From contig OZ244044.1 in NCBI GenBank assembly GCA_965215275.1, forward strand, positions 1,536,001 to 1,600,000: a stretch of DNA of 64,000 nucleotides, read 5' to 3'. The position numbers were made by a program, and so were the translations under genes. Source of the stretch: Thermodesulfobacteriota bacterium (GTDB lineage Bacteria > Desulfobacterota_D > UBA1144 > Nemesobacterales > JAJCZQ01). The notes below the pieces were generated by a model. That model had not been told where the DNA came from. It worked only from the letters and a program-made list of their open reading frames with translations, and searched no databases. This document shows positions 2-46,983 of the stretch, piece by piece (positions within the stretch are counted from its first letter, which is position 1; the number at the start of each line of letters is the position of its first letter).

Positions 2-1426
2 TTGAATTTTAACTTTGTCACCCAAGTGATAAGCGGAACACCAACTGCTGCGATGCCTAAGACTGATTATACATGGAGAGCAACGGACAGAGACGGATAT
101 ACGGCTGAATTGACGTTCAGTATAACGATAACGGCCCTGTCCTTTGACGGGCAGGTACCTTCTTCTCCTGTTTTGTACTTGGCGGAGAGACCAGTAACAC
201 CGTTAACACTGCCTGCTGCAACGGGAGGTACTGCTCCGTATACTTACGTTCTGACCCCTGAATTACCTGATGGACTGGACTTTAACGATACCACCAGAGT
301 TATAAGCGGGACACCGACTGCTGCAACGCCCGTGAATACCTATACGTATACCGTTACAGACGCAGACGGAACTGAGACGGAGGTGACGTTCGATATTGCC
401 GTAGCAGCACACTTTTCAGGCGTTGAGATAGAAAGCAGGTTTTACACGGTCGGTACGGCGGTAACGGAAACGCTGCCCGAGGCAATCGGACATAACGGAA
501 CGGTAACGTACAGTTTAACTCCTGCCCCTCCTGCTGAATTGACCTTTACCCCTGCCACCCGGGTTATAAGCGGAACACCGACTGCTATACAGAAGAATGC
601 GAGGCTTTATACGTATAGTGCTGCTACCGGTGCAGGTGTACCTGCTCGAACGTTGGTGTTCCATATCACGGTAAGAGATGAACCGGACACAAGGCCGAGT
701 TTCGGCGGTGAGACGGTAGAAGATAAGGAATACATAATATCGGGAAGTCCGATAACCCCGTTCGTGCTGCCTGAGGCAACGGGAGGGAATGGAACGGTAA
801 CATACAGTCTGACTCCTCGTTTACCAGACGGATTGATCTTTACGCCTGTTGATCGAGAGACAAGCGGGACACTGACTGCTGCGATGTCTGAGACCGATTA
901 TACGTGGAGTGCCACGGACGAGGATAACGACAGGGCTGGGTTAACGTTCAGTATAACGGTGGAAGAGGACAGCGAACCGGCATTCAGCGTGACGACGATA
1001 GAAGATCAGGTGTACACGGGGGAAAGAATAAGGCTGCCGGTAGCAACGGGAGGGAACCCGCCGTTAAGATACAGTATAGATCCTCGTTTACCGACGGGAA
1101 TGAGATTGAACGAAGACACAGGGGTCATAAGCGGGACGCCCGCGAGTGCGTCACCTGCAACTTCTTACACGTACACGGTAACGGACAGGAATGGAGACAT
1201 GAAAGGGTTGACTTTCAGGCTCAGTGCAGAGGTTTCTTCTACTCCAGGACCAACAACAGGAAGACCAGGAACGTCAGGTAGTGATTCAGGCGGAGGTGGA
1301 GGAGGATGTGCCGTCTCAGATCAGAGCAGCACTGCTTCTGATATTCCCGGAGTAATTGCATGTCTGATACTTATTCCTGTATCAGTAGTGATAAAAAGGA
1401 AGAGAAGATCTCAGATAAAGACTTAG
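2..1426 (+). CDS. Surface protein paralog 1 (5' truncated by window): putative Ig (He_PIG-like) repeats plus Gly6-Cys/TM/basic C-terminal tail
   Basis: About 4.5 repeats of ~95 aa (LPxATGG..YSLxPxLPxGLxF...RxISGTPT...YTYTxTDxDG); C-terminus GGGGGGC-hydrophobic-KRKRR shared with paralogs 2 and 3. Confidence 0.85.
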   Translation: MNFNFVTQVISGTPTAAMPKTDYTWRATDRDGYTAELTFSITITALSFDGQVPSSPVLYLAERPVTPLTLPAATGGTAPYTYVLTPELPDGLDFNDTTRVISGTPTAATPVNTYTYTVTDADGTETEVTFDIAVAAHFSGVEIESRFYTVGTAVTETLPEAIGHNGTVTYSLTPAPPAELTFTPATRVISGTPTAIQKNARLYTYSAATGAGVPARTLVFHITVRDEPDTRPSFGGETVEDKEYIISGSPITPFVLPEATGGNGTVTYSLTPRLPDGLIFTPVDRETSGTLTAAMSETDYTWSATDEDNDRAGLTFSITVEEDSEPAFSVTTIEDQVYTGERIRLPVATGGNPPLRYSIDPRLPTGMRLNEDTGVISGTPASASPATSYTYTVTDRNGDMKGLTFRLSAEVSSTPGPTTGRPGTSGSDSGGGGGGCAVSDQSSTASDIPGVIACLILIPVSVVIKRKRRSQIKT

Positions 1427-1820
1427 CAGTGCGGTCCTTTCAAAGGCATTTCTGAGAAAGAATTACAGCCCGGTTTTCTTTTATATCAGTTATCAGTTCG
1501 TTGAAGAGAATGAATGTATTGCCGTGTGTTGAACCGTCTTGATATTCTGAACGGGTTGAAAGAACGGGACGAACGATCTCTGAACTGAGAAATTCATTAC
1601 TACGGAAAAATAAGGGGATTATATAGTTAAGTGCCGAAACCACTATTTCTTTACTTTCGTGGTATTCCCTTTTGATTTTTTACTGTTTTGTTTTTTTATC
1701 TTCCGAACTTTATCATAATTAGGTTGTAATAATGTCTTTACTACTTCGTCCACTGTAGCTGGTATGTGTGAAATAAAGCTGTTTTTATAAGTTTTATCTT
1801 TTTCTGTCATTTTATCTATC

Positions 1821-2309
1821 CTATCTCGGATAAATTATAGTTCCCTTAGATTTAGCCCATCTTTCAGTAAACCCTACATGTGATATATCATTACTACTTC
1901 TATCCAGTTGTCTTTCTGTTTCTTTAACTACTATTTCTGGTTCTAATTCATATATTACTTTTACTCTTGTCTGATCATATTCATAAAAAATAGCTAAATA
2001 TATTTTACTATTTCTCCTTATACGATTTAGAGATTCCTGTCTTTTATCAGGAGGAGATTTAAACATCCTGTCTAACTGACCCGTGCCACCTTCCTTACAA
2101 GACAAATATTCATAAACTATATTATGATCTTTAAAATCTCTGGCATCTGCATCTCTTTTACTGTGTATAAGTTCATGTCCCAATAAATCAGCTATTATCA
2201 TCTCTTTAACTAATCCAGGTTGTAGTAAATTATATATACCCATTGATTTGGCAAGATCAGCTGCTTTTAACACTAAATCTATTATCCTGCGATAGATGTT
2301 AGATGCCAT
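1821..2309 (-). CDS. PvuII-like type II restriction endonuclease
   Basis: 162 aa; blocks DLAKSMGIYNLLQ, IYELEP and KGTIIY resemble R.PvuII DLALKHGINDIFQ, IYRLEP and HGTKIY (recalled sequence); overlaps the MTase 3' end. Confidence 0.65.
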   Translation of the reverse strand: MASNIYRRIIDLVLKAADLAKSMGIYNLLQPGLVKEMIIADLLGHELIHSKRDADARDFKDHNIVYEYLSCKEGGTGQLDRMFKSPPDKRQESLNRIRRNSKIYLAIFYEYDQTRVKVIYELEPEIVVKETERQLDRSSNDISHVGFTERWAKSKGTIIYPR

Positions 2310-3088
2310 TCTATCTCCTCTTTATATTCTGAATTTATTCTGGATCTAGATAAATCAATATATCTATCATTAATTTCAAAAGCTATAAAATCCCTTTTGT
2401 AATTTTCACATACTACAGCTGTAGTTCCTACACCTGAAAATGGATCAAGCACAACATCACCTTCATTAGAACTTGCAAGAACTAATCTTTCTATTAACTT
2501 CTCTGGCTTTTGTATGGTATTAAGAAGTTCTCTTGATATTAACTCTTTTGATTTATAGGTTAATTGTTTAACATCTCCCCATACATCACCTGGATTCTTG
2601 CCTTTAGTATTAAACTTAGTTTTATTAAATTTTCCATTAGTTACAGAGGGAACATTTTCACATCTTTGTCTATGTGTTAGTTCTACTAACTGTGGAACTC
2701 TGATATCATCTAAATTAAAACATTTTGCTTGTTTACCTTTAACAAAGTAATAGATAATATCGTAATTGTTTGTGTATTTTAGTTTACCTTGAGATAACCT
2801 GCTTGGCTGGTACCATATTATTTTAGATTTACAGTTTAAATATTTTCTATAATCTACAAAATCCAAACAATCAGGTTTACCGAACAAATATAAAGTTCCG
2901 CCTGTTTTTAATTTAGGTTCAAATTTCTTTAACAGATTAAGATTAAACTTTTGAATACTTGGAATACGGTCCCAATCATTATCAGTAACTCCGTAAGGAC
3001 CATCACATATAATTAAGTCAATAGATTTATCGTCTACTTTCTTGATTAAATCTAACGCATCCCCACAGTAAAATTCGTTTAATTTCAT
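2282..3088 (-). CDS. Beta-class amino (N4-C/N6-A) DNA methyltransferase
   Basis: Motif IV variant DGPY near the N-terminus, QKPEKLIERLV, motif I VLDPFSGVGTT near the C-terminus. Confidence 0.9.
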   Translation of the reverse strand: MKLNEFYCGDALDLIKKVDDKSIDLIICDGPYGVTDNDWDRIPSIQKFNLNLLKKFEPKLKTGGTLYLFGKPDCLDFVDYRKYLNCKSKIIWYQPSRLSQGKLKYTNNYDIIYYFVKGKQAKCFNLDDIRVPQLVELTHRQRCENVPSVTNGKFNKTKFNTKGKNPGDVWGDVKQLTYKSKELISRELLNTIQKPEKLIERLVLASSNEGDVVLDPFSGVGTTAVVCENYKRDFIAFEINDRYIDLSRSRINSEYKEEIEWHLTSIAG

Positions 3089-3090
3089 TT

Positions 3091-4029
3091 CTAACTGATC
3101 AATTCTTTGTATTTAAGATGCTTACCTGACAAACCTTTAATAACTTTTTCGATCTGATTCATAGTATGTAAAGGACGGATGTTATGCCTGCCCGCATACT
3201 CATCTACATAGCGTTGTAGATGTTTCCTGCTCATGTAGTGGTATATCCCAGTATGTCCTCTTTTCAGCATAGACCAGAAACTTTCCATCCCGTTGGTATG
3301 TGCCTGTTCCTTGATATATTCACCTACTCCGTGATTAACTGTCTTGTGTTTATACCCTTTTTTATTCAGTCCACTATATCCTAAATTCTCATCTGTATAG
3401 ATCGTTGATCCGTCTTGAACTGTTTCCTTAATCATATTTTGCAGTTCATCCTTCTTAACGGTTTCTGTTACTTTTGCTTTAACCTTCTTATCTACTCTTG
3501 ACTTAATACCTACTACGGCAGATTTAGTTTTAGTACTTCTGCCCTGTGTTCCCTTCACTTTTTTACTGGCATGCTTGTTTCTCTCAAGTCCGCCAACATA
3601 AGTCTCATCCATCTCTATTGGTGACATTAAAGGATTATCTGATTGCTCGTCAAATACCTTCCTTATTCGGTGTCCTAAATACCAGGCTGTCGTTTGAGTA
3701 ACTCCTATATCTCTTGCCAACTTATGACTGGATACTCCCTTTAAGTTGGTAGTCATCAAATATATAGCTAATAACCATTGATGCAAAGATAAATTACTAC
3801 CTTCAAATACAGTGCCTGTTCTGACACTAAATCGTTTATCACAATCTTTACACCTATAAGGCATGGTAGCATGTTTAGCTTTAGAAGTTCTTACACTTCC
3901 ACAACGAGGGCAACATTTATACTCATTATCTTCACCCCAGAGCATCTTCTCAATATGTTTTCTTGCTGATTCCTCGTCTGGAAACATTTTATTAAAATCA
4001 TATAAACTAACTTTTTTTCTATGTGCCAT
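3091..4029 (-). CDS. IS1595-family (ISXO2-like) DDE transposase
   Basis: Zn ribbon CPRCG..YRCKDC, HTH, EMDETYVGG, IYTDE, VNH, HTNGMESFWSMLKR, YVDEYAGRHN. Confidence 0.95.
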   Translation of the reverse strand: MAHRKKVSLYDFNKMFPDEESARKHIEKMLWGEDNEYKCCPRCGSVRTSKAKHATMPYRCKDCDKRFSVRTGTVFEGSNLSLHQWLLAIYLMTTNLKGVSSHKLARDIGVTQTTAWYLGHRIRKVFDEQSDNPLMSPIEMDETYVGGLERNKHASKKVKGTQGRSTKTKSAVVGIKSRVDKKVKAKVTETVKKDELQNMIKETVQDGSTIYTDENLGYSGLNKKGYKHKTVNHGVGEYIKEQAHTNGMESFWSMLKRGHTGIYHYMSRKHLQRYVDEYAGRHNIRPLHTMNQIEKVIKGLSGKHLKYKELIS

Positions 4030-4209: not shown

Positions 4210-6999
4210 TTACTGTACGGGGTTTACCGTATATGTGCAGGAGACCTGTTCATTGAGCCTGTAGTTCCTGCAACCCCAGAACGTTCCGTAAGGACCTTTT
4301 CTTTCTACCATATCTGCACCACAAAGCTGACAAATGGGGACCTTCATATCGCACTGCGGATCCGTACAGACCCTAATTTCCTCCAGCCGCTTCATAGGGT
4401 TACCACACTTTACACAGCCACTTTCGAACTCTTCCATTTCAATGGGATAATTTTCCCTTATCAGCTCTACTACGAAATCAGATGCTATATTCCTGTTGTA
4501 ATTACAGATCAGATAGACGCGATACCGGGCTCTTGTGAGTGCCACGTAAAATAAACGACGTTCTTCGGCGTATAGGAAGGATTCTGACTTTGGCAGAAAG
4601 GACTCGAGCAGTGGATGCGTGCTCTTTTGTGATGGAAATCCATATTCTCCAGATTGCAAGTTCAGCACAACGACAAAATCAGCTTCCTTACCTTTGGAAC
4701 CGTGTATCGTCATAGCAGAAACAGATAGATCGGGATGGTCTTTATCCAGCTTTTTTAACGTTTGATCACTTGGGAGGTCAAACCGAAATCTGCTCAGAAA
4801 GTATACCGTGCTGCTTTTTTCCACGTGAGAAGAGATCTTATTGAGGACTTCTTGCAATATGGGGTCTAATTCAGAACTATCTTCAGTGGTTGCATAGTTT
4901 GTTCTCAGAATGGAAATTGCTGGTTGTTCAGCTACGGTGTGCGTTGATAACGTTTTTTGGATCTGAGCCGGATTTTTCAGAATAAATTTAGACGTAACAT
5001 CACAGATACTGTTATTGAATCTGAACGTTTTGTCTAACCTCGTTATCTTGGTTGCACCAAATTCGTCAGCAAATTGAGTAATAAATGCAATGTCACTGCC
5101 GGTAAATCGATAAATAGACTGCCAGTCATCTCCGACGCAGAAAAGGGAGCAGTCATCTGCGGAATCTCTCAATGCCTTGATCAGTCTTGCCCGGGGATCT
5201 GATATATCCTGAAATTCATCAACAAGTATATATCGCCATCTTGAATTAAATCGTCCTTCATTGACGTAGGTGATGGCACGGCCGATCATATCATCAAAAT
5301 CGATCTGGTCTTCATCGGATAATTTTTTCTTGTAAGATCCAATTATAGGTTTAAGCAGATTTAATGCTTCTGATGCCTGACTTGGATCACTTGACCCCCT
5401 TATTACATCTGCAATTTGCTCCTCCTCAAAGTGACAGGCATTGTACAACTGCAGGAACTGCGTTAGTAATTTGGCGAATTCACTTATTGCACCAAAATCC
5501 TTGAGATCTTTCAGAACGTTCTCAGAAGACCGGGGATTAAATGTGACGCCTGCCCTTTTAAGTTTGGTTTTGAGTGAACTTAAAAGCGAGTCTTCGGTTT
5601 GCTCATAATAATAGGTTTCTATTAGATGAGTGCCGTATTTCTTATGTATTTCACGTTTCCAGTTCATATCTCGATGGTATTTTCCCCGATTGACGTACGG
5701 TGGGGTGTTGCCATTTTTGTCTATACCAAAATGCTCAATATAGATCTCATACTCAGGTAAATAGAAATCTGGTTGGTACTGACGATGATCCCGTGAACGA
5801 GTGGAGTATTTATATTTTGCTTCATACCTGTATTCTATTCCAAGCTTGAAAAGACAGTTGGCGATCAGACATTCACCAAGGCTTTTTACCTTTTCGCCTT
5901 TAAGGGTCCTGATACCGTTAGCCTGGATATAGTTAAAGTATTCACTTTCGGATTTAAAGTCGAACGGATTTACCTGGGGATAAAGATAATGGTCAAAATA
6001 CTCGATTACTTTTTGCCTGTACGCAGTTTCCTGCATTTGTTCTTCAAACCACCTGTTCACGTGATTTGTCAGTTTTATATCATCTTCTGCCAGAGGTGAA
6101 ATTGAAGGCTGGACACCTTCTACGTCGGCAATTATATCCTTTCCCAGTTTGTGGAACGTGCTGGCAACGACCCCTGTTTTACCGAACTTTTCATTCAGGC
6201 GTTCCTGCATTTCATCGGCGGCTTTTCTGGCAAAAGCGAGCATTAAGATCTGTTCTGGTCTTGCCTGTCCGCTTTTTATTAAAAAACCAGCCCTGCTGAC
6301 CATAGTGCTTGTCTTACCGGTTCCGGCACCGGCAAGAACCAGATTGTTATCTTCGTCGGTAATACAGGCGTCTCTTTGTCTCTCGGTCAGTGGGTTTTCT
6401 TCAATGGTGTCAAAGTAATTGACGAACTCCACTTTCTTATCTTTTAAATATTTTTTGCGGCGTACCTCAAGTTCCTTTTTTCCCCAGGACGCTAATTCAT
6501 TTAACAATTTGAAATCGTCCATGTGCTGTTTTTCAACCGTGTCTTGAGGAGGTACTTCCTTGAAAATCTCACGCTGCCTGATCGCGATAGTACGGATGCG
6601 TTGAAATTTTGAACTGCGTAGATAGCTGTCCTGCTCTAAGACCGACCGCACTTCGGCAGATGCTTTACTGACTTCGGGTAATATCTTTCTGTAAAAAAGC
6701 TGCCTTAACCATTTGTAAGTATCTCTTGTGGCTTCCTTAGGCAGATATTCGAAGGACTGGGTTCCTTCACTGGTGTTAAAAGTAAGTTTTGCAAAAAACG
6801 GTCCTTCTTTGTATAGATTGGAGTTGTTGAGTTTCTCTATATCTATCTCTAGTGTTCTGCTTTCGTTTACGTGTAGATACACTTTATCATTAAGATGTGA
6901 AAAACCTATCTTCTGAGCTCCGAGGATGCGGGAGGTCCATGACGGTGAAATGACCTTCTCTGTTCTTAACTTTTTTGGGGTTGTTGAATTTGGCAACAT
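4210..6999 (-). CDS. UvrD-family DNA helicase IV-like protein with inserted PD-(D/E)xK-like domain and C-terminal topoisomerase-type Zn ribbon
   Basis: AGAGTGKT, DEFQD, VGDDWQSIYRF, TIHGSKGKE, EERRLFYVALTRA; insert KSLGE..PDFYL..IEHFG; CQLCG..KGPYGTFWGC. Confidence 0.85.
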   Translation of the reverse strand: MLPNSTTPKKLRTEKVISPSWTSRILGAQKIGFSHLNDKVYLHVNESRTLEIDIEKLNNSNLYKEGPFFAKLTFNTSEGTQSFEYLPKEATRDTYKWLRQLFYRKILPEVSKASAEVRSVLEQDSYLRSSKFQRIRTIAIRQREIFKEVPPQDTVEKQHMDDFKLLNELASWGKKELEVRRKKYLKDKKVEFVNYFDTIEENPLTERQRDACITDEDNNLVLAGAGTGKTSTMVSRAGFLIKSGQARPEQILMLAFARKAADEMQERLNEKFGKTGVVASTFHKLGKDIIADVEGVQPSISPLAEDDIKLTNHVNRWFEEQMQETAYRQKVIEYFDHYLYPQVNPFDFKSESEYFNYIQANGIRTLKGEKVKSLGECLIANCLFKLGIEYRYEAKYKYSTRSRDHRQYQPDFYLPEYEIYIEHFGIDKNGNTPPYVNRGKYHRDMNWKREIHKKYGTHLIETYYYEQTEDSLLSSLKTKLKRAGVTFNPRSSENVLKDLKDFGAISEFAKLLTQFLQLYNACHFEEEQIADVIRGSSDPSQASEALNLLKPIIGSYKKKLSDEDQIDFDDMIGRAITYVNEGRFNSRWRYILVDEFQDISDPRARLIKALRDSADDCSLFCVGDDWQSIYRFTGSDIAFITQFADEFGATKITRLDKTFRFNNSICDVTSKFILKNPAQIQKTLSTHTVAEQPAISILRTNYATTEDSSELDPILQEVLNKISSHVEKSSTVYFLSRFRFDLPSDQTLKKLDKDHPDLSVSAMTIHGSKGKEADFVVVLNLQSGEYGFPSQKSTHPLLESFLPKSESFLYAEERRLFYVALTRARYRVYLICNYNRNIASDFVVELIRENYPIEMEEFESGCVKCGNPMKRLEEIRVCTDPQCDMKVPICQLCGADMVERKGPYGTFWGCRNYRLNEQVSCTYTVNPVQ

Positions 7000-20413: not shown

Positions 20414-21193
20414 ATGAAAGCAATAATACTTGCTGCCGGCAGAGGCACCAGGCTATATCCATACACTCAGTACGTACCTAAATGTTTACTTGACATTGGC
20501 GGGGTAACGATCTTGGAACATCAGCTCAATCATATAAGGGACTGTGGAATAAGTGAAGTAGCGGTCGTCGTTGGTTTTGGTTTTGAAAAAGTAGAGAATT
20601 TCCTGAGAAGCTACGATGGACTGGGGATTAAGATCAAAACGCTTTACAATCCTTTTTATCAGACGACGAACAGCTTGATATCTCTGTGTATCGCTCGTGG
20701 TGAGATGGATGATGACGTGTTGATAATGAACGGGGATGACGTTTTTGAAATTGAAGTGATCAACAAGGTCCTGAAAGTTTCAAGTGAAAAGTTCTGTATG
20801 CCTATCAAGGTCAGAGAAGCGTATGATGAAGAGGATATGAAGATCAGGTTAGATAAGAACAAGATAGTGGATATAAGCAAAGGTATTACAAGCAACATAT
20901 CTGCAGAATCAGTAGGATTACGGGTGTTCAGGGACACCGGGGTGGAGATACTGAAAAGGGCCATTGAAGAAGAGATGCGTACCGTCTTTTCAGAAAAGAA
21001 ATGGTACATATCTGCGGTTCAAAGACTGATCAACAGAGGTTATAAGATCCAGTCACTTGATATAGGGGACCTTTTCTGGATGGACGTTGATTATCCAGCT
21101 GATCTGCTTAAAGTAAGAGCGAATTCGGACAAGTTCCTGAATTTCGATCATAACCAGCCTTATCTGCGAGTGGTGGAATCTAACCTAGGATAG
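20414..21193 (+). CDS. Nucleotidyltransferase (LicC/IPCT-like cytidylyltransferase)
   Basis: KAIILAAGRGTRL, PKCLL, NGDD, WMDVD. Confidence 0.85.
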   Translation: MKAIILAAGRGTRLYPYTQYVPKCLLDIGGVTILEHQLNHIRDCGISEVAVVVGFGFEKVENFLRSYDGLGIKIKTLYNPFYQTTNSLISLCIARGEMDDDVLIMNGDDVFEIEVINKVLKVSSEKFCMPIKVREAYDEEDMKIRLDKNKIVDISKGITSNISAESVGLRVFRDTGVEILKRAIEEEMRTVFSEKKWYISAVQRLINRGYKIQSLDIGDLFWMDVDYPADLLKVRANSDKFLNFDHNQPYLRVVESNLG

Positions 21194-22446
21194 TGCACGC
21201 TTTAGTTATAGTCTCCGGTACTGGTTTAAATGGAGAGTCGCTCCACTCGTTTTCTTTTCTTTCAGTTGCCAATGTCGTCCAGCTGAAAAGGATACTGATC
21301 AATGCTGAAAGGGCTGGTATTACTCATTTCACCCTTGTCTGCGACGAGAGCAGTAAATTCCCAGTACTTGAACTGATCAAAGATAAAAGGATCCAGTCAC
21401 GGATCGATCTGGTAACGGAAAGTTCAAAACCAGGTCCGTACGTTGCAGAAGAATATATCGTTATTCAATCCAATCTTTTAACTTACTCCACCTCTATAAG
21501 ATCATTTATTGATATATCCAAAGGTAAAACTGCCTCCACCGTGCTTTGCGATGGTAAGGAACGTTACGGTTTGTTAAAAGTAAATAAAGCGGACGCGGAA
21601 AAGATCGTTAACGGAAGGGACCTTAGTTACTGGATCGAGCAGCAAAGTGAGAGTTCCATTGAGCACGTCACCGTGGAAGAAGGTTACTATATCAGCCTGA
21701 GCAACGACGAAAGATCACTTAAACGGGCAGAGGACCTGATATTTTCCAACGTAGGTAAAACTGCAACCGGCTGGATAGCAAGGAACGTAAACGGCAGGAT
21801 ATCACTGCCTATCAGTCGTCAGCTGGTTAAAACTTCCTTGACGCCTAATATGGTAAGCCTGTTAATAAACGTGTTCGGTGTACTGTGCGGACCTTTTTAC
21901 GCGATGGGTCATCCCGTTCTTGGAGCGATGTTTATGCAGATCGCCACGATCCTGGACCGATGCGATGGGGAGGTTGCCAGAGTTAAGCTCATGGAAACTA
22001 AAAAGGGACAGTGGGTGGACACGATCAGCGATCAGTTCACGGTGCTTTCTTTTTATATAGGACTTCCGATCGGTTTCTATTATTACGGAGTTCAGGATAC
22101 CTGGGTTCTTGCGATCGGAGCAATGAACATATTACTGTATATATTTTTCCTTATATGGTCTTTTTACTTTCTTGCGAACTATACGAACTCGGGAAGTCTG
22201 GTCGCCTATTTTGAAGTCGATAAAATAGTGGATAAAAAAAATACTTCCATTATAAGAAAGTTTGCAGCTTTTTTAAGACCGGCAGGCAGGAGGAACGTTT
22301 ATTCTCTGGGCTTTTTTATTATGGCGGTCATATCAGGCTACGAACTGGTCTTTCTTTTTGCCACCATAGGCATAATCTTATTTTTTATTCATCAGTTCGA
22401 GGATATGATAAGAATGAAAAATCAAAGAAAAGAAACCCTCAAATAG
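21193..22446 (+). CDS. CDP-alcohol phosphatidyltransferase family protein with N-terminal degenerate NTP-transferase-like domain
   Basis: TPNMVS, DRCDGEVAR-x8-GQWVDTISD signature, several TM helices. Confidence 0.85.
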   Translation: MHALVIVSGTGLNGESLHSFSFLSVANVVQLKRILINAERAGITHFTLVCDESSKFPVLELIKDKRIQSRIDLVTESSKPGPYVAEEYIVIQSNLLTYSTSIRSFIDISKGKTASTVLCDGKERYGLLKVNKADAEKIVNGRDLSYWIEQQSESSIEHVTVEEGYYISLSNDERSLKRAEDLIFSNVGKTATGWIARNVNGRISLPISRQLVKTSLTPNMVSLLINVFGVLCGPFYAMGHPVLGAMFMQIATILDRCDGEVARVKLMETKKGQWVDTISDQFTVLSFYIGLPIGFYYYGVQDTWVLAIGAMNILLYIFFLIWSFYFLANYTNSGSLVAYFEVDKIVDKKNTSIIRKFAAFLRPAGRRNVYSLGFFIMAVISGYELVFLFATIGIILFFIHQFEDMIRMKNQRKETLK

Positions 22447-24090: not shown

Positions 24091-25047
24091 ATGAAAAAAT
24101 TTTTTATAGTTGATGCTCACGAGGACATAGCATTTCATCTAAGCTATTTCAATCGGGATTTTAACGACACAGAGGCACGTTGCATGATAACGCTTCCCTG
24201 GCTCCAGGAGGCTGAAGTACGGCTGGTATTCAACACCATATTTGTTCATCCGAAGCACAGACCTCGTAAAACGGTGCAGAAGGCAAAGCAGCAGGTCGAA
24301 ATTTATGAACGGCTCTACGAAAAATACAAAGACGCAGTTATGAAGATCAGCAGCTTAGGTGATCTGGAGGAGCTTGAAAAAAACGACAAGATAGGATTTC
24401 TAACCCTTATGGAGGGTGCCGATCCACTTGTTCAGGATATTGATGAACTGAAATTCTATCATGACATGGGGCTTAGGGTATTAGGGCTTTCATGGAACAA
24501 CTCCAACAGATTTGCATCGGGTATGGAAACCAAAAAAGGACTTACAGAAGATGGCGTGAGACTGATCGAGAAGATGAACGAGTTGGGTATTACCCTGGAC
24601 CTGTCTCATCTTAATGAAAAATCGTTCTGGCGTGCTGTAGATTCGACCCGGTTAATTCCCGTAGCCACGCATTCCAATGCAAGGTCATTAACCGATCATC
24701 CGAGAAATCTCAGGGACGAGCAATTAAAGGCGATTTCCGAAAGAGATGGAGTTGTGGGAATAGTTTTTTATAACTCATTTCTTAAAACTAAAAATTCACC
24801 GCCGACTTTAGAGGATATATTTAAACATACTGACTACATTATAGATCTTTGTGGTGAGGATCATGTAGGAATCGGTACAGATTTTGACGGTGGACGTATT
24901 TGCGAGTTTCCCAGGGAAATAAATAACATATCTAAACTTTCGTTAGTGACAGACTATTTTTTAGAGCGTGGTTATAGCAGGGAAAGAGTAGAAAAGATTA
25001 TGGGTAGAAACTTTCTAAGAGTAATGAAAATAAATCTTTCAAAGTGA
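24091..25047 (+). CDS. Membrane dipeptidase (peptidase M19)
   Basis: DAHED, MEGA, DLSH, THSNAR, HVGIGTDFDG. Confidence 0.9.
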   Translation: MKKFFIVDAHEDIAFHLSYFNRDFNDTEARCMITLPWLQEAEVRLVFNTIFVHPKHRPRKTVQKAKQQVEIYERLYEKYKDAVMKISSLGDLEELEKNDKIGFLTLMEGADPLVQDIDELKFYHDMGLRVLGLSWNNSNRFASGMETKKGLTEDGVRLIEKMNELGITLDLSHLNEKSFWRAVDSTRLIPVATHSNARSLTDHPRNLRDEQLKAISERDGVVGIVFYNSFLKTKNSPPTLEDIFKHTDYIIDLCGEDHVGIGTDFDGGRICEFPREINNISKLSLVTDYFLERGYSRERVEKIMGRNFLRVMKINLSK

Positions 25048-25097
25048 AATACAGTTTACCTTACATTATCATAAACATGCATAGATATTGTTCATAC

Positions 25098-25127
25098 TTG
25101 ACATTCGTTCATAATACTTGGTAAAAT
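25098..25127 (+). promoter_or_regulatory. Sigma70 promoter of paralog 2
   Basis: TTGACA-18bp-TAAAAT with extended -10 TG; conserved at 43656-43685. Confidence 0.7.
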
Positions 25128-25173
25128 ATCAATGTTATGAAAAATCCAAACATAAAAACACGTAGTTCCATTA

Positions 25174-25182: not shown

Positions 25183-25243
25183 ATGTATACCTGACCTTTC
25201 AGCCTGGTATAAGTATTCTGTAAGAAAAATGTTTAAGATAATA

Positions 25244-25252
25244 CCCCCCCCC
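25244..25252 (+). repeat. Poly-C tract 2 (C9) in signal-peptide region of paralog 2
   Basis: ATG 25229 is one base out of frame with the main ORF; C8 or C11 restores MFKIIPPPSKSLLTLVLFLLFIISMAAKG. Confidence 0.85.
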
Positions 25253-25301: not shown

Positions 25302-28300
25302 ATGGCTGCAAAAGGACAGAGCAGCTTAGAAGAAACATTATCTGAATGCAGAGGAATGAGTTCAGACACGGAAGATCCGTTATACGGATGTCAGTGGCAT
25401 CTGAAGAACACGGGGCAGTTAAGTATTTCCGGAAAGAGAATAACAGCAGGAGAAGATATAAACATAGAGGGAGTGTGGAACGAAGACGTATACGGTACCG
25501 GAATTAACGTAGCAATAGTAAGTGACGGTATCGACCTTTCTCACGAGGACCTTTCTGATAAGGTCCGTTCCGGACCGAACTATGATCTTTCTGACAGTTC
25601 ATCCTTTACCGGAACACGAGCGGCAGGTGTAATAGCAGCAACTGGATATAACGGACTGGGAGTAAGAGGAACAGCACCTGGTGCGAGTATATACAGTTAC
25701 GGGTTAACTGGTGATCTCAGGGAAGCGGACGCAAAAGATGCAATGGTCCGTAATAAGGAAATAACTGCTGTATCGGTTAACGGCCGGGGATCTGAGGAGG
25801 GAGCTTTTTTTCAGGAGGCTTCAACTTCCTGGGAAGAAGGAGTGGAACTTGGTATAAGTAAAGGGTTTTATGGTAAAGGTGTGTTTTACGTCCGGGGAGC
25901 AGGGGACGGGCATGAGAATAACGATCAGGCTAATTTTTCTGAATATTCTAATTACTACGGCGTAACTGCCGTGTGTTCAACAGACGGCTTTGGAAAGAAG
26001 AGTATATTTTCAGAAGAGGGAGTAAATCTATGGGTATGTGCACCTGGTTCTGATATTGTAACTACAGATAACAACAACGATTACGTTGTAACTTCCGGAA
26101 CATTTCTATCAGCTTCACAGGTTGCAGGAGTGGCAGCACTGCTGAGAGAGATAAACGGGCAGCTGAGCTGGAGGGATGTAAAGCTTATACTTGCGGGTTC
26201 AGCACGGCAGAACGATTTTTTTGACATGAGCTGGGAGACAGGAGCTGTTAAATACGGTTCTGATACGGAAAGATATAAATATAATCCTAAGTATGGTTTT
26301 GGCGTGGTAGACGCAGAAGCAGCCGCAGAACTTGCCAGAAGCTGGAAAGGCGTAGGTGAAATGAGGACCGTTACAGCTTCTTCAGATAATGAACTGACAA
26401 TCCCTGATGGAGAAGGAGAAGCAGACGGTGTCCTTGTCTCCAGACTTATGATACCGGACCTGGAAGAAACAACATTTACGGAGTTTGTAGAAGTAGAACT
26501 TGTTTTCTCGTGTGACTGCTTACAGGACCTTAATATACAGATAACCTCTCCTTCCGGGACAGTGTCTGAACTTGTGCGGGAGTTTGCCGGGGAGTCTGTA
26601 AGTGGATCTTCAAATGAAGAAGAAAACTGCGTCAGTTACCTGAGAAGAACACATCGTTTCGGGTCGGCTAAACACCTCGGAGAAGACCCTTCCGGAGAAT
26701 GGATCCTTAAGATCTCCGATACTGCTTCCGGAGATGAAGAAGATGGAAAAAACACTGTTACCTTACACTCATGGAGCGTTAAGGTGTATGGGAATTTTTA
26801 TCAGGGACATGGCAGTGAGACAGGTACTAAACATCATGAAATAACCTTTGGTGGTGCAACGATAGATAATCAAGTATATAAAGTAGGTAAAACAATAACA
26901 CCATTAGAGCTACCTAACGCAACAAGAACAGGAGGGGGTACTTTCAGTCTTGCATTGTCTCCTCGTTTATTACCTGCTGGATTGAGTCGTAACGGCAGAA
27001 CTATAAGTGGAACACCAACTGCACCGAAGCAAGAGACTACTTATAGATGGATTGCTTCTATAGGACATGATAATACTGAGATAAGGTTCAACATCACGGT
27101 AGAAGCTAACACAGAACCCACCTTCTCAGGAGCAACTGTCCCAGATCAGATATGGACGGAAGGGGTAAGGATACCAACGTTACGTCTTCCTAATGCAACA
27201 GGAGGTAACGGAACTTTAACATACTTTTTAAGTCCTTCGCAGCCAGTTGGTATAAACAGACAGGACAACAGGTTATCCGGAACACCTACGGAACCTAAAG
27301 GAAGAACTCGTCATACATGGACAGTCAGAGACGAAGATGGTGATGAAGATATTATTGAGTTCTATATTACTGTAAGAGATAAAGATGACGTACCGAGCTT
27401 CGGCAGTGAGACTGTAGAAGATCAGGTGTATGTTGTACGCTCAATAGCAGGTCTTCCAGTAACTCTGCCAGAGGCAACGGGAGGGAATGGAGCATTAACT
27501 TACATTTTACTTCCTTTTTTACCTCGTGGATTGAATTTTGATCCTGACACCCGAGTAATAAGTGGCACACCCACCCGTGCATCCCCTATTAGGAATATGA
27601 TACATACAGTATCAGACATAGATGGAAGTAGTGCTCAATTAGAGTTCAGGATAACAGTAGAACCAAACACGGAACCAACCTTCGGCAATGAAACTATAGA
27701 TAATAAGGTGTACATTAACGGCATTACAGCAGTAATGGAAACACTGCCTGAAGCAACGTCAGGGAATGCACCATTAACTTACAGTTTAACTAGTCTTGGG
27801 TTAATTGATCTTAATTTACCTCGTGGATTGAATTTTGATCCTGACACCCGAGTGTTAAGTGGAACACCCAACCTTGACGCACACGCACGAATACTTCCTG
27901 TAACTCGTACATATACATATAAAGTAACAGACAATGATGGAGATACAGCAGAGATAACGTTCAGTATAACAGTAGAAGAAGACAGCGAACCGGACTTCAG
28001 CGGTGTGACAATACCAGATCGTGTGTACACGGGGAGAACAATAGAGCTGCCAGAGGCAGCGGGAGGGAATGCACCGGTTACTTACAGTATAACACCTGGT
28101 CTGCCAGCTGGATTGATATTTAACGAAGTAACGCGGGAAATAAGTGGGACACCCAGGAGTGCATCATCTGCTGCTTCTTACACGTATACGGCAACAGACA
28201 GGAATGAAGATACGGATACATTGGATTTCATGCTCAGTGTAGAGGTTACTTCTACTCCAGGACCAACAACAGGAAGACCAGGAACGTCAGGTACTGATTC

Positions 28301-28439
28301 AGGCGGAGGTGGAGGAGGATGTGCCGTATCAGAGCAGAGCAGCGTTGCTTTTGATATTCTCGGAGTAATGACATGTCTGATACTTATACCTGTATCAGTA
28401 GCTATCAGAAGGAAGAGAAGAGCTCAGATAAAGACATAG
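25302..28439 (+). CDS. Surface protein paralog 2: inactive kexin-like S8 domain, P-domain, 5 Ig-like repeats, Gly6-Cys/TM tail; real start upstream across poly-C frameshift
   Basis: DPLYGCQWHL, LSWRDV, YGFGVVDA, P-domain GEDPSGEWILKISD; triad positions read VAIVSDG, FTGTRAAG, SGTFLSA. Confidence 0.85.
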   Translation: MAAKGQSSLEETLSECRGMSSDTEDPLYGCQWHLKNTGQLSISGKRITAGEDINIEGVWNEDVYGTGINVAIVSDGIDLSHEDLSDKVRSGPNYDLSDSSSFTGTRAAGVIAATGYNGLGVRGTAPGASIYSYGLTGDLREADAKDAMVRNKEITAVSVNGRGSEEGAFFQEASTSWEEGVELGISKGFYGKGVFYVRGAGDGHENNDQANFSEYSNYYGVTAVCSTDGFGKKSIFSEEGVNLWVCAPGSDIVTTDNNNDYVVTSGTFLSASQVAGVAALLREINGQLSWRDVKLILAGSARQNDFFDMSWETGAVKYGSDTERYKYNPKYGFGVVDAEAAAELARSWKGVGEMRTVTASSDNELTIPDGEGEADGVLVSRLMIPDLEETTFTEFVEVELVFSCDCLQDLNIQITSPSGTVSELVREFAGESVSGSSNEEENCVSYLRRTHRFGSAKHLGEDPSGEWILKISDTASGDEEDGKNTVTLHSWSVKVYGNFYQGHGSETGTKHHEITFGGATIDNQVYKVGKTITPLELPNATRTGGGTFSLALSPRLLPAGLSRNGRTISGTPTAPKQETTYRWIASIGHDNTEIRFNITVEANTEPTFSGATVPDQIWTEGVRIPTLRLPNATGGNGTLTYFLSPSQPVGINRQDNRLSGTPTEPKGRTRHTWTVRDEDGDEDIIEFYITVRDKDDVPSFGSETVEDQVYVVRSIAGLPVTLPEATGGNGALTYILLPFLPRGLNFDPDTRVISGTPTRASPIRNMIHTVSDIDGSSAQLEFRITVEPNTEPTFGNETIDNKVYINGITAVMETLPEATSGNAPLTYSLTSLGLIDLNLPRGLNFDPDTRVLSGTPNLDAHARILPVTRTYTYKVTDNDGDTAEITFSITVEEDSEPDFSGVTIPDRVYTGRTIELPEAAGGNAPVTYSITPGLPAGLIFNEVTREISGTPRSASSAASYTYTATDRNEDTDTLDFMLSVEVTSTPGPTTGRPGTSGTDSGGGGGGCAVSEQSSVAFDILGVMTCLILIPVSVAIRRKRRAQIKT

Positions 28440-42900: not shown

Positions 42901-43591
42901 GTTCGGAGTTGTGGTGTTTCCCGGTTCCAACTGTGACCGGGACTGCTATTACGTACTTAAAGATTTTTTACGTCAGAGTTGTGAATATATCTGGCATCAG
43001 GACACCTGTCTGGATGATCTTGACTGTATATTGATCCCAGGTGGTTTTTCCTACGGTGATTATCTCAGAACGGGGGCTATAGCCAGATTTTCTCCGATTA
43101 TGGGAGCAGTAAAGGAATTTGCTGAAAATGGAAAACCTGTAATTGGAATATGTAATGGATTTCAGATATTAGTTGAATCTGGGATACTTCAGGGAGCATT
43201 TGTAAAAAATTATTCATTAAAATTCGTTTGCAGGTGGACAAACCTTCTGGTTGAAAACACCGATACACCTTTTACTTGTAACTTAAAAAAGGGCGACATT
43301 ATGAGGATCCCTGTTGCACATGGGCAGGGAAATTTCTACGTTTCTGACAAGCAGCTTAAAGCTTTGAAAGAAGGTTCACAAGTGGTGTTCAGGTATTGTG
43401 ATGAAAAAGGCAATACCGGTGTCAATGATAACCCCAACGGTTCTACTTACAGTATTGCGGGAATTTGTAACCCTGATCTCAATGTAGTTGGGATGATGCC
43501 ACATCCCGAACGGTCGTGTGAAGATATAATTGGTGGTAGTCAGGGTCGGTTGATCTTTGAATCAGTCCTTTCATGGATAAAGTCTCATTAA
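42893..43591 (+). CDS. purQ: FGAM synthase subunit PurQ
   Basis: VFPGSNCD, GGFSYGDYLR, GICNGFQ, MMPHPER; GTG start after GAGGAG. Confidence 0.96.
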   Translation: MAKFGVVVFPGSNCDRDCYYVLKDFLRQSCEYIWHQDTCLDDLDCILIPGGFSYGDYLRTGAIARFSPIMGAVKEFAENGKPVIGICNGFQILVESGILQGAFVKNYSLKFVCRWTNLLVENTDTPFTCNLKKGDIMRIPVAHGQGNFYVSDKQLKALKEGSQVVFRYCDEKGNTGVNDNPNGSTYSIAGICNPDLNVVGMMPHPERSCEDIIGGSQGRLIFESVLSWIKSH

Positions 43592-43655
43592 CTGTCTGCA
43601 CAAGTACGGGTATAGATCTTCAGGTAATTCTCATAGACGTTACAGGAGATCACAC

Positions 43656-43685
43656 TTGACATCCGTTCATAATACTTGGTAAAAT
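43656..43685 (+). promoter_or_regulatory. Sigma70 promoter of paralog 3
   Basis: TTGACA-18bp-TAAAAT, near-identical to 25098-25127. Confidence 0.7.
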
Positions 43686-43731
43686 ATCAATGTTATGAAA
43701 AATCCAAACATAAAAACACATAGTTCCATTA

Positions 43732-43741
43732 CCCCCCCCCC
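43732..43741 (+). repeat. Poly-C tract 1 (C10) in leader of paralog 3
   Basis: Counted directly; keeps ATG 43695 in frame with ATG 43788. Confidence 0.85.
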
Positions 43742-43802
43742 GTGTATACCTGAACTTTCAGCCTGGTATAAGTATTCTGTAAGAGCAATGTTTAAGATAA
43801 TA

Positions 43803-43811
43803 CCCCCCCCC
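43803..43811 (+). repeat. Poly-C tract 2 (C9) in signal-peptide region of paralog 3
   Basis: Leads to TAA 43815-43817; C8 or C11 restores PPPSKSLLTLVLFLLFILVIAAKGQ in frame with 43915. Confidence 0.85.
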
Positions 43812-43914
43812 ATCTAAGTCGTTACTAACCTTAGTCTTATTTCTTCTGTTTATACTGGTAATAGCTGCAAAAGGGCAGAGCAGCCTGGAAGAAACATTAT
43901 CTGAATGCAGAGGT

Positions 43915-46900
43915 ATGAGTTCAGACACGGAAGATCCGTTATACGGATGTCAGTGGCATCTGAAGAACACTGGGCAGTTAAGTATTTCCGGAAAGGAAAT
44001 AACAGCAGGAGAAGATATAAACATAGAGGGAGTGTGGAACGAAGACGTATATGGTTCTGGAATTAACGTAGCAGTAGTAAGTGACGGCATCGACCTTTCA
44101 CATGAGGACCTTACTGCAAACGTCCGTTCCGGACTGAACTATGATCTGTCTGACAGTTCATCTTTTAGTGGGACACGAGCGGCAGGAGTAACAGCAGCAA
44201 CTGGATATAACGGACTGGGAGTAAGAGGAACAGCACCGGGTGCGAGTATATACAGTTACAGGTTATCCGGTGATCTCAGAGAAGCGGACGCGGTGGTCCG
44301 TAATAAGGAAATAACTGCAGTATTGGTTAACGGCCGGGGATATGAGGAAGGAGCTTTTTTTCAGGAGGCTTTGGCTGAGTGGGAAGAAGGAGTGGAACTT
44401 GGAATAAGAGAAGGGTTTTATGGTAAAGGTGTGTTTTACGTCCGGGGAGCAGGGGACGGTCATGAGAATAACGATCAGGCTAATTTTTCTGAATATTCAA
44501 ACTATTACGGAGTAACGGCCGTTTGTTCAACTGACGGTTTTGGAAAGAAGAGTATATTTTCAGAAGAGGGAGTAAATCTATGGGTATGTGCACCTGGTTC
44601 TGATATTGTAACTACAGATAACAACAACGATTACGTTGTAACATCCGGAACTGTCCTTTCAGCTTCACAGGTTGGAGGAGTGGCAGCACTGCTGAGAGAG
44701 ATAAATGGACAGCTGAGCTGGAGGGATATAAAGCTTATACTTGCGGGTTCAGCACGGCAGAACGATTTTTTTGATATGAGCTGGGAGACTGGAGCTGTTA
44801 AATACGGTTCTGATACGGAAAGATATAAATATAATCCTAAGTATGGTTTTGGCGTGGTAGACGCAGAAGCAGCTGCAGAACTTGCAAAAAGCTGGAAAGG
44901 CGTTGGAGAGATGAGGACCATTACAGCTTCTTCAGATAATGAGATAACAATTCCTGATGGAGAAGGAGATGGAGAAGGAGAAGCAGACGGGATCCTTGTT
45001 TCCAGACTTATGATACCGGACCTTGAAGAAATATTTACGGAATTCGTTGAAGTAGAACTTGTTTTTTCTCATGACCGCTTACAGGACCTTGATATAAAAA
45101 TAACTTCTCCTTCTGGGATTGTTTCGGAACTTGTCCGGGAGTTTTCAGGGGAGGAAGAAGATGCTGATATCAGTTACCTGAGAAGAACACATCGTTTCGG
45201 GTCGGCAAAGCACCTCGGAGAAGACCCTTCCGGAGAATGGATCCTTCATATAACTGATACTGCTTATGGAGATGAAGAAAATGAAGAAAACACCGTTACC
45301 CTGCACTCATGGAGCGTTAAGGTGTATGGGCATGTTTTTTTATCAGACCGTGGCAAGGAGATAACTACTAAAGCTTTAACCTTCGGCAATCAGACGGTAG
45401 AAGATCAGGTGTGGGGTAACGGCAGCGCAGTAACGTTAACTCTGCCTGCTGCTACCGGAGGTAACGGAACTTTAAATTACAGTTTAACTCCTAATCCACC
45501 TCTTGGATTGACCTTTACCCAAGGCACCAGAACGTTAAGTGGAACGCTCAACGTCAGTGGACAACTACCCGTAACTACTACTTATACTTACAAGGTAACT
45601 GACGATGACGGAGATTCGGATACTCGCACCTTCTCTATTACTATAGAAGCTGATACAGAGCCGAGCTTTGGAGGTCAGTCTATCCCAAATCAGCTATATC
45701 TTGAAGGGACAACGTTAGGTCTTCCGGTAACGCTGCCTGAGGCAACGGGAGGGAATGGTCAGTTAAATTACAGTTTATCTCCTGCTTTACCAACTGGATT
45801 GGAATTTAATCCTGATATCAGAGTTATAAGCGGAACTCCAACTCAACATATAGTTATCCCTGAAACTTATACATATAAGGTAACGGACAATGACGGAGAT
45901 ACAGTTAATCTGAGGTTTCACCTGTCTGTATTATTCAACACCCGGCCAATCTTTGGTAACAGGATGATAACAGATAAGGTGTATTATACGTTTACAGGAG
46001 TAACGGAAACGTTACCTGAGGCAGCACAAAATAATAATCCACCTTCAACTTACAGTTTAGTTCCTGCATTACCTGATGGACTGATCTTTACCCCTGCTAC
46101 CAGAGAGATAACAGGAACACCGACCACTGCAATGTCTGAGACTGATTATACGTATACGGTTGCTGATCTAAATGGAGATACGGATGAGTTAACGTTCAGT
46201 ATCACTGTATTAGCAGGAGCAGACACGGAACCGACCTTCGGAAGTGAAACTATAGATAACAAGGTGTATATAAACGGAGAAGCAGTAAATGAAACACTGC
46301 CTGAAGCAACGTCAGGGAATGCTCCATTAACTTACAGCTTAACTAATACTGGGTTAACTATTTTGACTTTACATCGTGGATTGGATTATACAGACAGAGT
46401 TATAAGTGGAACACTCAATATCAATACTCCAAGAATACTTCCTCACACTTGGAGTTATACATATAAAGTAAGAGACAATAATGGAGATACAGCAGAGATA
46501 ATGTTCAGTATAACAATAGAAGAAGACAGCGAACCGGACTTCAGCGGTGTGACAATACCAGATCGTGTGTACACGGGGAGAACAATAGAGCTGCCAGAGG
46601 CAGCGGGAGGGAATTTACCGGTTACATACAGTATAACACCTGATCTGCCAGCTGGATTGAGATTTAACGAAGTAACGCGGGAAATAAGTGGGACACCCAG
46701 GAGTGCATCGACAAGGACTTACACGTATACGGCAACGGACAGGAATGGAAATACGGATACATTGGATTTCATGCTCAGTGTAGAGGTTACTTCTACTCCA
46801 GGACCAACACCACCACGAGGACCAAGAACGTCAGGTAGTGATTCAGGCGGAGGTGGAGGAGGATGTGCTGTATCAGAGCAAAGCAGCGTTGATGAAGATA

Positions 46901-46983
46901 TTCTCGGAGTAATGGCATGTCTGATACTTATACCCGTGTCAGTAGTGATAAGAAGGAAGAGAAGAGTTCAGATAAAGAACTAG
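43915..46983 (+). CDS. Surface protein paralog 3: inactive kexin-like S8 domain, P-domain, 5 Ig-like repeats, Gly6-Cys/TM tail; real start upstream across poly-C frameshift
   Basis: N-terminal half nearly identical to paralog 2; triad positions VAVVSDG, FSGTRAAG, SGTVLSA. Confidence 0.85.
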   Translation: MSSDTEDPLYGCQWHLKNTGQLSISGKEITAGEDINIEGVWNEDVYGSGINVAVVSDGIDLSHEDLTANVRSGLNYDLSDSSSFSGTRAAGVTAATGYNGLGVRGTAPGASIYSYRLSGDLREADAVVRNKEITAVLVNGRGYEEGAFFQEALAEWEEGVELGIREGFYGKGVFYVRGAGDGHENNDQANFSEYSNYYGVTAVCSTDGFGKKSIFSEEGVNLWVCAPGSDIVTTDNNNDYVVTSGTVLSASQVGGVAALLREINGQLSWRDIKLILAGSARQNDFFDMSWETGAVKYGSDTERYKYNPKYGFGVVDAEAAAELAKSWKGVGEMRTITASSDNEITIPDGEGDGEGEADGILVSRLMIPDLEEIFTEFVEVELVFSHDRLQDLDIKITSPSGIVSELVREFSGEEEDADISYLRRTHRFGSAKHLGEDPSGEWILHITDTAYGDEENEENTVTLHSWSVKVYGHVFLSDRGKEITTKALTFGNQTVEDQVWGNGSAVTLTLPAATGGNGTLNYSLTPNPPLGLTFTQGTRTLSGTLNVSGQLPVTTTYTYKVTDDDGDSDTRTFSITIEADTEPSFGGQSIPNQLYLEGTTLGLPVTLPEATGGNGQLNYSLSPALPTGLEFNPDIRVISGTPTQHIVIPETYTYKVTDNDGDTVNLRFHLSVLFNTRPIFGNRMITDKVYYTFTGVTETLPEAAQNNNPPSTYSLVPALPDGLIFTPATREITGTPTTAMSETDYTYTVADLNGDTDELTFSITVLAGADTEPTFGSETIDNKVYINGEAVNETLPEATSGNAPLTYSLTNTGLTILTLHRGLDYTDRVISGTLNINTPRILPHTWSYTYKVRDNNGDTAEIMFSITIEEDSEPDFSGVTIPDRVYTGRTIELPEAAGGNLPVTYSITPDLPAGLRFNEVTREISGTPRSASTRTYTYTATDRNGNTDTLDFMLSVEVTSTPGPTPPRGPRTSGSDSGGGGGGCAVSEQSSVDEDILGVMACLILIPVSVVIRRKRRVQIKN

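Follow-up and report, generated by a model that had tools for sequence, protein, structure and literature searches.

The window analysed here is a 64,000-nt stretch (G000:C1:1536001-1600000) from an uncultured Thermodesulfobacteriota bacterium, whose genome (G000) is a single contig of 1,990,023 bp with 42.5% GC and 99.87% completeness. It holds three copies of a dispersed gene family, P1 (2-1426), P2 (25302-28439) and P3 (43915-46983), whose products join a kexin-like S8 and P-domain head that has lost its catalytic residues to a stalk of Ig-like He_PIG repeats and a Cys-containing tail. An earlier, sequence-only reading of this DNA had reported three copies in 47 kb, and all of them were located, P1 as a partial gene at the window edge. 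We consider it probable that the family is a repertoire of 49 dead kexin-like proteins with shuffled Ig-like stalks and a predicted surface anchor, switched by slippage and diversified by recombination, such that cells would come to carry differing coats.

All three genes lie on the forward strand. Only the 3′ part of P1 falls within the window; the gene starts about 2.4 kb to the left (G000 1533.6 kb), where its promoter, a C13 tract and a dead S8 head are found. The part inside comprises the end of repeat 3, repeats 4-7 (137-403, 407-673, 695-961 and 977-1228), a linker, and a Cys tail of GGGGGC, transmembrane segment and basic residues (1292-1426) that is a predicted sorting signal. P2 is preceded by a sigma70-like promoter, TTGACA-N18-TAAAAT (25098-25139), with a first start codon, ATG1, 9 nt behind the -10 box. 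Tract 1 (C9, 25174-25182) follows, and then a second start codon, ATG2 (MFKIIPPP), with tract 2 (25229-25252 together; the C9 itself at 25244-25252). The ATG1 frame of P2 hits a stop 8 nt ahead of ATG2, and the signal peptide is out of frame, so that the gene is OFF in the assembly. In P3, the promoter (43656-43697) again has ATG1 9 nt behind the -10 box, and tract 1 (C10, 43732-43741) leaves ATG1 and ATG2 in the same frame; ATG2 and tract 2 (43788-43811; C9 at 43803-43811) leave the signal peptide out of frame, and a single C change is needed to turn P3 ON.

The head of P2 (25356-26792) has Asp replaced by Ser at 25521, His by Thr at 25608, the oxyanion Asn by Asp at 25905 and the catalytic Ser by Phe at 26103. 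That of P3 (43915-45330) has Asp replaced by Ser at 44080, His by Ser at 44167, Asn by Asp at 44455 and Ser by Val at 44653. Each stalk has five repeats, at 26841-27101, 27117-27374, 27393-27659, 27675-27974 and 27990-28241 in P2 (stalk 26841-28241) and at 45376-45645, 45661-45930, 45946-46209, 46231-46518 and 46534-46782 in P3 (stalk 45376-46782), and the Cys-containing tails close the genes at 28305-28439 and 46849-46983. Nucleotide identity between P2 and P3 is 92% in the leader and 89% in both head and tail, and repeats 1-5 compared by position give 47, 54, 54, 78 and 93% (median of all repeat pairs, 56%). Thus, the description of P2 and P3 as sharing leader, S8/P domains and end repeats around strongly divergent repeats 1-3 is borne out, as is the near-identity of their last repeat. 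The linker STPGPTTGRPGTSG, said to be DNA-identical in P1 and P2 and different in P3, lies inside a 45-nt exact match between P1 (1236-1280) and P2 (28249-28293), and its 42-nt coding sequence occurs at two genome sites, those of P1 and P2; P3 has STPGPTPPRGPRTSG, which is also present in four other frames. The motif pair LPDGLIFTP..AMSETDYT does link P1 and P3, and was found in three family frames, the third being at 1119963.

The family extends far beyond the window. By tblastn, 59 dispersed loci were found, amounting to 171,481 nt or 8.6% of the 1.99-Mb genome, 57 with an S8 and P-domain head and two without. The shared architecture is a signal peptide, the kexin-like S8 and P domain, 0-15 He_PIG repeats (263 family-wide), a Pro/Thr linker and a Cys tail with the pattern GGGGC-x-x-S, transmembrane segment, basic residues. 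S8, P_proprotein and He_PIG are the only Pfam families over cut-off. Some subgroups may have one or more PPC-like domains before S8; a cluster search with the N-terminal extra domain of the active subgroup matched PPC-like clusters at 0.90, which is no more than a lead. Most open frames are 570-2100 aa long and unbroken. The + strand carries 45 of the 59 loci, on both GC-skew arms, possibly reflecting selection against inversion between opposed copies.

The heads align end to end with kexin/furin S8B proteases (PDB furin, E 5e-29, and kexin), in which S8 is likewise followed by a P domain. With the catalytic positions fixed by the furin alignment, Asp, His, oxyanion Asn and Ser are all replaced in P1, P2 and P3. 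Across the family the triad is kept in only eight of the 57 heads, six with D-H-N-S and two with D-H-D-S (one of them split by a G13 slip), whereas 49 lack the catalytic His. The gene at 794672 is one with an intact head. The 49 dead heads form one clade in a quick IQ-TREE analysis (SH-like approximate likelihood ratio test, 99), with one change against 7.7 in shuffles. The heads of group A lack Asp, His and Ser, and since only about 25 residues separate signal peptide and catalytic domain, they have no prodomain. Pooled dN/dS is 0.27 in 30 group-A heads and 0.35-0.44 in the repeats, which argues that the dead proteins are maintained as proteins. A precedent for such use is provided by Clostridioides CspC and CspA, which are reported to keep the subtilase fold without catalysis for binding or sensing (10.1101/461657). 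They differ in being single-copy soluble spore proteins that are not phase-variable, stalked or recombining, and the NCBIfam Csp match of the family is weak (21-24 bits; cut-off, 675). The dead head could serve as a non-catalytic binding or decoy domain, with the stalk setting reach and surface signature.

Recombination has affected both heads and stalks. In the 30 group-A heads the pairwise homoplasy index (PHI) is 0.542, compared with 0.643 +/- 0.005 expected (z=-18.6, p=2e-4, 5000 permutations), with signal at third positions too; five no-recombination simulations gave |z|<=1.1. Significant identical tracts join 37 of 435 head pairs, none of them among the three window pairs. For 27 of these genes, trees of four segments rejected each other in 12 of 12 approximately unbiased (AU) comparisons, and nearest neighbours in the P domain and in the last repeat agree in 0 of 27. 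The recombination testing proposed by the sequence-only reading therefore yields a signal (PHI, p=2e-4), and the segment trees conflict where simple duplication predicts congruence (12/12 AU rejections). Its notion of constant ends, however, does not survive, because the heads are themselves mosaic by PHI, AU rejection and exact shared tracts.

The stalks fall into 94 repeat types at 75% identity, and all 41 multi-repeat frames have a distinct string; with the conflicting segment trees, this supports the proposal of repeats shuffled among dispersed paralogs. Almost half of the repeats (127/263) have a partner of at least 90% identity in another gene. For example, r2-r6 of gene 137735 equal r2-r6 of 1028816 (99-100%), but its r1 equals that of 652448 (99.6%), while r1 of 1028816 is that of 787923 and 1082129 (100%). 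P2 r2 is 94% identical to the gene at 1744628 and P2 r5 94% to the frame at 1789441. The best partners of P3 r1-r5 are, in order, 34724 r2 (85%), 34724 r3 (79%), 1212234 r6 (94%), 1007857 r2 (91%) and 1212234 r8 (99.6%), and two stretches of the P3 head, 44281-44519 and 44659-44942, match the gene at 1118595 exactly. Altogether, 33 genes are connected by 48 exact tracts, which measure 200-1562 nt, and by exact-tract donors P3 is tiled from 14 genes and P2 from 14. That the same copy recurs in several genes suggests that copying was non-reciprocal. Outside eight genes with tandem near-identical repeats, 65 of 119 internal tract ends lie in the junction quarter and six in the three deciles 0.4-0.7, in counts where events recur and are not independent, so that p-values overstate the effect. 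A shufflon or invertase system would use a fixed crossover site and a dedicated recombinase; here the ends are scattered across roughly half a repeat, beginning in the YTYTVTD strand and running past the junction to ATGGN (no recombinase search was made). Junctions are less conserved between unrelated repeats, though tract ends cluster there. A clear half-and-half chimera was seen in just one repeat out of 263. The order of repeats is seldom inverted from one gene to another, so exchange appears mostly position-respecting, with gain and loss. RecA-type gene conversion with repeat gain and loss, in which near-whole modules survive, would produce such stalks. A divergent pair of paralogs at G000 397719-401609 (-) and 404523-408581 (+) has 1315 identical nt in common across the distal repeats; as an inverted repeat, this stretch could turn over the intervening segment and so exchange the heads.

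These patterns also bear on a different view, that the family is a toolkit of specialized adhesins or nutrient-capture binders with phase-varied attachment, in which recombination is a by-product of many similar copies and has nothing to do with evasion. Purifying selection throughout, with no excess of replacements, fits it, as does the resemblance of the repeats to the serine-rich platelet adhesin entry 4m03 (E 3.9e-6), and subtilase pseudoproteases can act as ligand sensors, as reported for CspC (10.1101/461657). Fixed specialization sits poorly, however, with group-A heads that have a median nucleotide identity of 88% and are continually homogenized, or with a different string in every multi-repeat stalk and close partners elsewhere for 127 repeats. 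We regard this toolkit view as unlikely. For the repertoire that we favour, diversity would appear to come from recombination and not from an excess of point changes.

The putative switch lies at the 5′ ends. Genome-wide, there are no C/G runs of length 7 (48 expected), six C8/G8 runs and 68 C9/G9 runs, the last being about 30-fold above the expected 2.2, and 83 of the 139 runs of at least 8 are at family loci. The 55-56 runs outside the family lie in other repeated genes (several of a DFDKAIG type, TPR-like by eye) and in upstream regions, implying a large set of contingency genes despite intact MutS and MutL. Every one of the 49 dead genes carries a C8-13 run near the signal peptide, within its 5′ coding region, and the six D-H-N-S genes have none there. 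Furthermore, 47 of the 49 have their own TTGACA-N17/18-TA(A/G)AAT promoter, with an ATG 9-10 nt behind it in 44. Where there is a single tract, this promoter-proximal ATG opens the signal peptide. In 28 genes the order is promoter-proximal ATG1, tract 1, 46-50 nt, ATG2 and tract 2, which places two C-runs in series. Between the tracts, the ATG2 frame is free of stops in all 28 genes and the other two frames in one and three of 28, and the ATG1-to-tract lengths of 28, 37, 43, 49 and 55 nt (24/28 genes) differ by multiples of three. The two-tract leader is therefore probably translated, to judge from its coding pattern, and two C-runs behind a fixed promoter-proximal ATG could possibly act as an AND switch.

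Few copies are in frame in the assembly. From ATG1, three of 16 single-tract and one of 28 double-tract genes are in frame, and tract 2 alone is in frame in five of the 28; the total among dead genes is 4-5 of 49 if both tracts must be in frame, and nine of 49 if ATG2 is the start. Counts of 3/17 single-tract and 1/27 double-tract genes, which place gene 1505453 among the former even though it has two tracts, are not different from one-third and one-ninth (p=0.13 and 0.18). P2 and P3 are OFF by either count, and P1 is OFF from the conserved ATG, with an in-frame ATG 4 nt earlier. Proteins P0059 and P0139 of other assemblies were called without a signal peptide, and the G000 copy has one in frame, an observation that bears only indirectly on tract-length change. 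The per-copy switches postulated from the sequence thus gain support, in that tracts lie in the signal-peptide region and are mostly out of frame, and slipped-strand change of the C-run would set each gene on or off, with four to nine of the 49 dead genes on depending on the ATG used. Loss of mismatch repair was considered and rejected, since MutS and MutL are intact.

Tract 1 might instead tune expression. ATG1 would then open a short leader peptide that adjusts translation from ATG2 by coupling or attenuation, so that the tract is a dimmer and not one input of an AND gate. If tract 1 is C9 or C12, the frame opened by ATG1 ends 8 nt ahead of ATG2, which is the geometry of coupling. All 28 genes conserve ATG2 together with its MFKII context, and in Streptococcus gallolyticus control of pil1 is reported to lie with a leader peptide that varies in its repeats (PMC3894217). 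Against a dimmer stand the inter-tract segment that is open in the ATG2 frame almost exclusively, the signal peptides of single-tract genes, which start directly at the promoter-proximal ATG, and an ATG2 that has no clear Shine-Dalgarno sequence although the genome uses one. A genome-wide signal of leaderless starts was not found. On balance, we treat the dimmer as a serious but tentative possibility.

Drift in a small-population symbiont would offer another origin for so many silent copies: the promoter-plus-gene unit would duplicate and convert neutrally, with most copies silenced by slippage and decaying. At their start most copies are indeed out of frame, and decay would give the internal frameshifts or nonsense codon that interrupt five genes away from long runs; the family head was not found in any of four other genomes of the same taxonomic family (80-99% complete). 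There is also a relic promoter cassette with a decayed leader upstream of gene 1486505, at G000 1486280-1486440 (L091, about 4980-5140); the stretch after it is common to the region upstream of P2 (window 25030-25100). Neutral decay is hard to reconcile with a dN/dS of 0.27-0.44, mostly unbroken frames, leader indels in multiples of three, the absence of C7/G7 runs beside 30-fold enrichment of C9, and the large cost of 8.6% of a 2-Mb genome. We consider drift very unlikely.

Other assemblies and sequencing runs provide a further view. Housekeeping proteins P0006, P0009 and P0011 of other assemblies are 97.6-99.7% identical. P0053 differs from its G000 partner P0136 at one position in the first 1000 residues, and then in a P-domain patch and the stalk (three vs four repeats), while P0054 and P0051 have 96% identical heads and entirely different stalks (two vs three repeats). 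Novel 9-mers are present in other G000 paralogs for 163 of 218 in P0064 and 95 of 130 in P0071, but for only 12 of 161 in P0053. All of these strain comparisons are of proteins without DNA, with orthology and assembly quality unchecked. Run X6, which is about 97% identical, includes a contig of 10.9 kb that departs from G000 some 280 bp ahead of the gene 1486505 promoter and continues for 8.9 kb. The leader of that gene is almost uncovered in X6, which suggests that this site lacks the paralog. A linker insertion of 33 nt in the same run matches P0059.

The same data address the worry that long-read homopolymer errors create the OFF states and mis-assembly of near-identical repeats the mosaics. 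The assembly is of a metagenome type, in a single contig, and no contig from other runs spans a whole paralog. Nevertheless, contigs agree with the assembly at three tracts, that of gene 1482199 (X3) and both of gene 1486505 (X2 and X3), though some runs may be the assembly's own source. This agreement argues against sequencing error and shows no polymorphism; contigs drop minority tract-length variants. Runs X1, X2 and X4, which may include the assembly's source, match the P3 flanks without difference, and contigs agree just as fully with P3-specific stretches, among them the r1/r2 junction (X1, 45463-45680). A repeat type that the assembly places in five genes has 3-5 times the flank depth in reads, and the proteins of other assemblies show the same patchwork. 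Reads placed on P3 come mostly from cross-mapping of paralogs, so the variant, indel and joint tables derived from them carry no weight here as evidence of switching or swapping. An artefact is, in our view, scarcely credible.

A route to the surface can be proposed by analogy. The tail is tripartite, with GGC-x-x-S, a hydrophobic helix and a basic cluster, and its Cys is invariant. It scores 14.4 against Synerg-CTERM (cut-off 22.5) and 14.3 against JDVT-CTERM (cut-off 27). The one CPBP protease of the genome, in the region G000 680.3-681.5 kb (L093:1477-2121), lies directly upstream of family gene 678054; its best matches are myxosortases, sub-threshold, with 65.4 against a required 100 on Mrt_core and scores below all Mrt cut-offs. 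GspD is over cut-off and stands beside a GspE-like ATPase. In Myxococcus, a CPBP protease with a type II secretion system (T2SS) set cleaves and surface-anchors its clients (PMC11980579). The MYXO-, JDVT- and Synerg-CTERM systems share with the family the Cys motif, helix and basic cluster, dozens of clients, and CPBP plus T2SS (PMC11980579; 10.1101/2023.06.07.544157). They differ in that tail and protease here are below every curated cut-off and the clients form one paralog family. By analogy to MYXO-CTERM, the proteins may be exported by Sec, cleaved and lipidated at the tail Cys by the single CPBP protease and then exported by the T2SS; surface anchoring is thus predicted from tail, protease and GspD.

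Among known systems, the closest is that of the Neisseria opa genes. These are dispersed full-length paralogs, each with a slippery repeat in the part that encodes the signal sequence; recombination and gene conversion within the genome produce copies that are identical or nearly so, and few are in frame (PMC13183285). They occupy 9-12 loci, use pentanucleotide repeats and encode outer-membrane adhesins of a human pathogen. The family here has five times as many loci (59) and uses C homopolymers, often paired; its proteins swap Ig repeats of 90 aa as modules and combine a pseudoprotease head with a C-terminal Cys anchor. It does share the dispersed genes with their own promoters, the frame-setting tract and recombination between loci. 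The opa barrel is absent, the three Pfam families named above being the only ones over cut-off, and there is no sequence relationship. On its gene organization, then, the family is one that works like opa with unrelated proteins. Silent-cassette systems, such as Borrelia vlsE, Neisseria pilE/pilS and Anaplasma msp2, use segmental gene conversion among paralogous sequences. That type of antigenic variation was rejected for the family, because its genes are full-length and 47 of the 49 dead ones have promoters, with no single expression site and no promoterless donors.

RecA compared with named genomes gives hits of only 56-63% identity, spread over many phyla, and plasmid hits of about 60%; a Dadabacteria-like symbiont of marine or sponge habitat would be a guess. 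A scan of Joint Genome Institute (JGI) metagenomes gave 73 pattern matches that reduce to four loci, all distant single S8 genes (39-43%). In homologues further away, the head is joined to fn3, LRR or cadherin domains. Enrichment of fn3 and cadherin domains has been reported for sponge symbionts (PMC8163846), which gives only a hint about habitat. The same-genus genome G001 has, in place of the family, He_PIG and leucine-rich-repeat (LRR)-like lipoproteins, two with a G9 run upstream (LRR judged by eye). These lipoproteins (L085 5788-14780, L086 1594-4431) have a C-GGGGG start, the mirror image of the GGGGG-C tail of the G000 family, with the same He_PIG repeats, LRR-like ends and, in some, G9 upstream. 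In G009 and G029, genomes of the same order, related repeats occur in open frames that measure 10,000-13,500 aa, and a single frame of G029 contains three matches of equal score at a spacing of about 7 kb. No published description of the family was found in a literature search, which did not cover subscription journals and bioRxiv supplements.

The surroundings of the window genes are varied. Just behind P1 (window 1821-4029, -) lie an IS1595-family transposase, a DNA methyltransferase and an unknown 162-aa open reading frame, at 33% GC. IS1595 was rejected as the agent of dispersal: 10 of 41 transposase hits are within 4 kb of a family gene, and 22-29% of the genome lies in such zones. Directly behind P3 (47537-51591, +) is a two-gene candidate defence system, PDC-M23A/B, with a HamB-like DEAD helicase, followed by an AT-rich DUF2779 gene (52078-53985, -). 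A nucleotidyltransferase and CDP-alcohol phosphotransferase pair at 20414-22446 (+) resembles the di-myo-inositol-phosphate pathway, with scores below cut-offs.

Several points weigh against a switched and shuffled surface repertoire. The association of dead heads with tracts represents one evolutionary event and not 49, and the two D-H-D-S genes, sisters of the dead clade, likewise bear tracts close to the start. No change in tract length was seen in the contigs described above, and intact MutS and MutL should damp slippage. Pooled pairwise dN/dS (<0.5) gives no sign of positive selection. No host is indicated, and G000 has one ankyrin protein and no LRR_8 match. The five genes with internal breaks, the recounted tract ends, the protein-only strain comparisons and the sub-threshold tail and protease scores belong on the same side. 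The pay-off would be bet-hedging against some reader of the surface, be it host cells, grazers or phage. To call the system antigenic, as the sequence-only reading did, is a guess, since evasion of phage or grazers and adhesion switching fit equally well. We can also sketch a fuller history, which we put forward as doubtful. One ancestral surface protease would have lost catalysis, gained a promoter-plus-slippage cassette and grown to 49 copies; 28 AND gates would hold expression near one gene in nine, so that few stalks are shown per cell; module conversion would renew the library; and the dead heads, alongside six active proteases that have no switch, would act as decoys or ligand traps. If true, it would mean machinery of antigenic-variation grade in a lineage that is uncultured and apparently not a pathogen, and whose mismatch repair is intact.

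Surface repertoires that switch and shuffle are a textbook feature of pathogens facing antibodies. If the repertoire proposed here is real, the same design would have arisen under other pressures, such as innate recognition, grazing or phage, in an uncultured lineage that devotes 8.6% of a 2-Mb genome to it. The split between active unswitched and dead switched genes, together with the two-tract leader, would offer tests of how pseudoenzymes are repurposed and of how the number of coat variants is limited. Finally, as such families collapse in short-read assemblies, they are probably under-counted.

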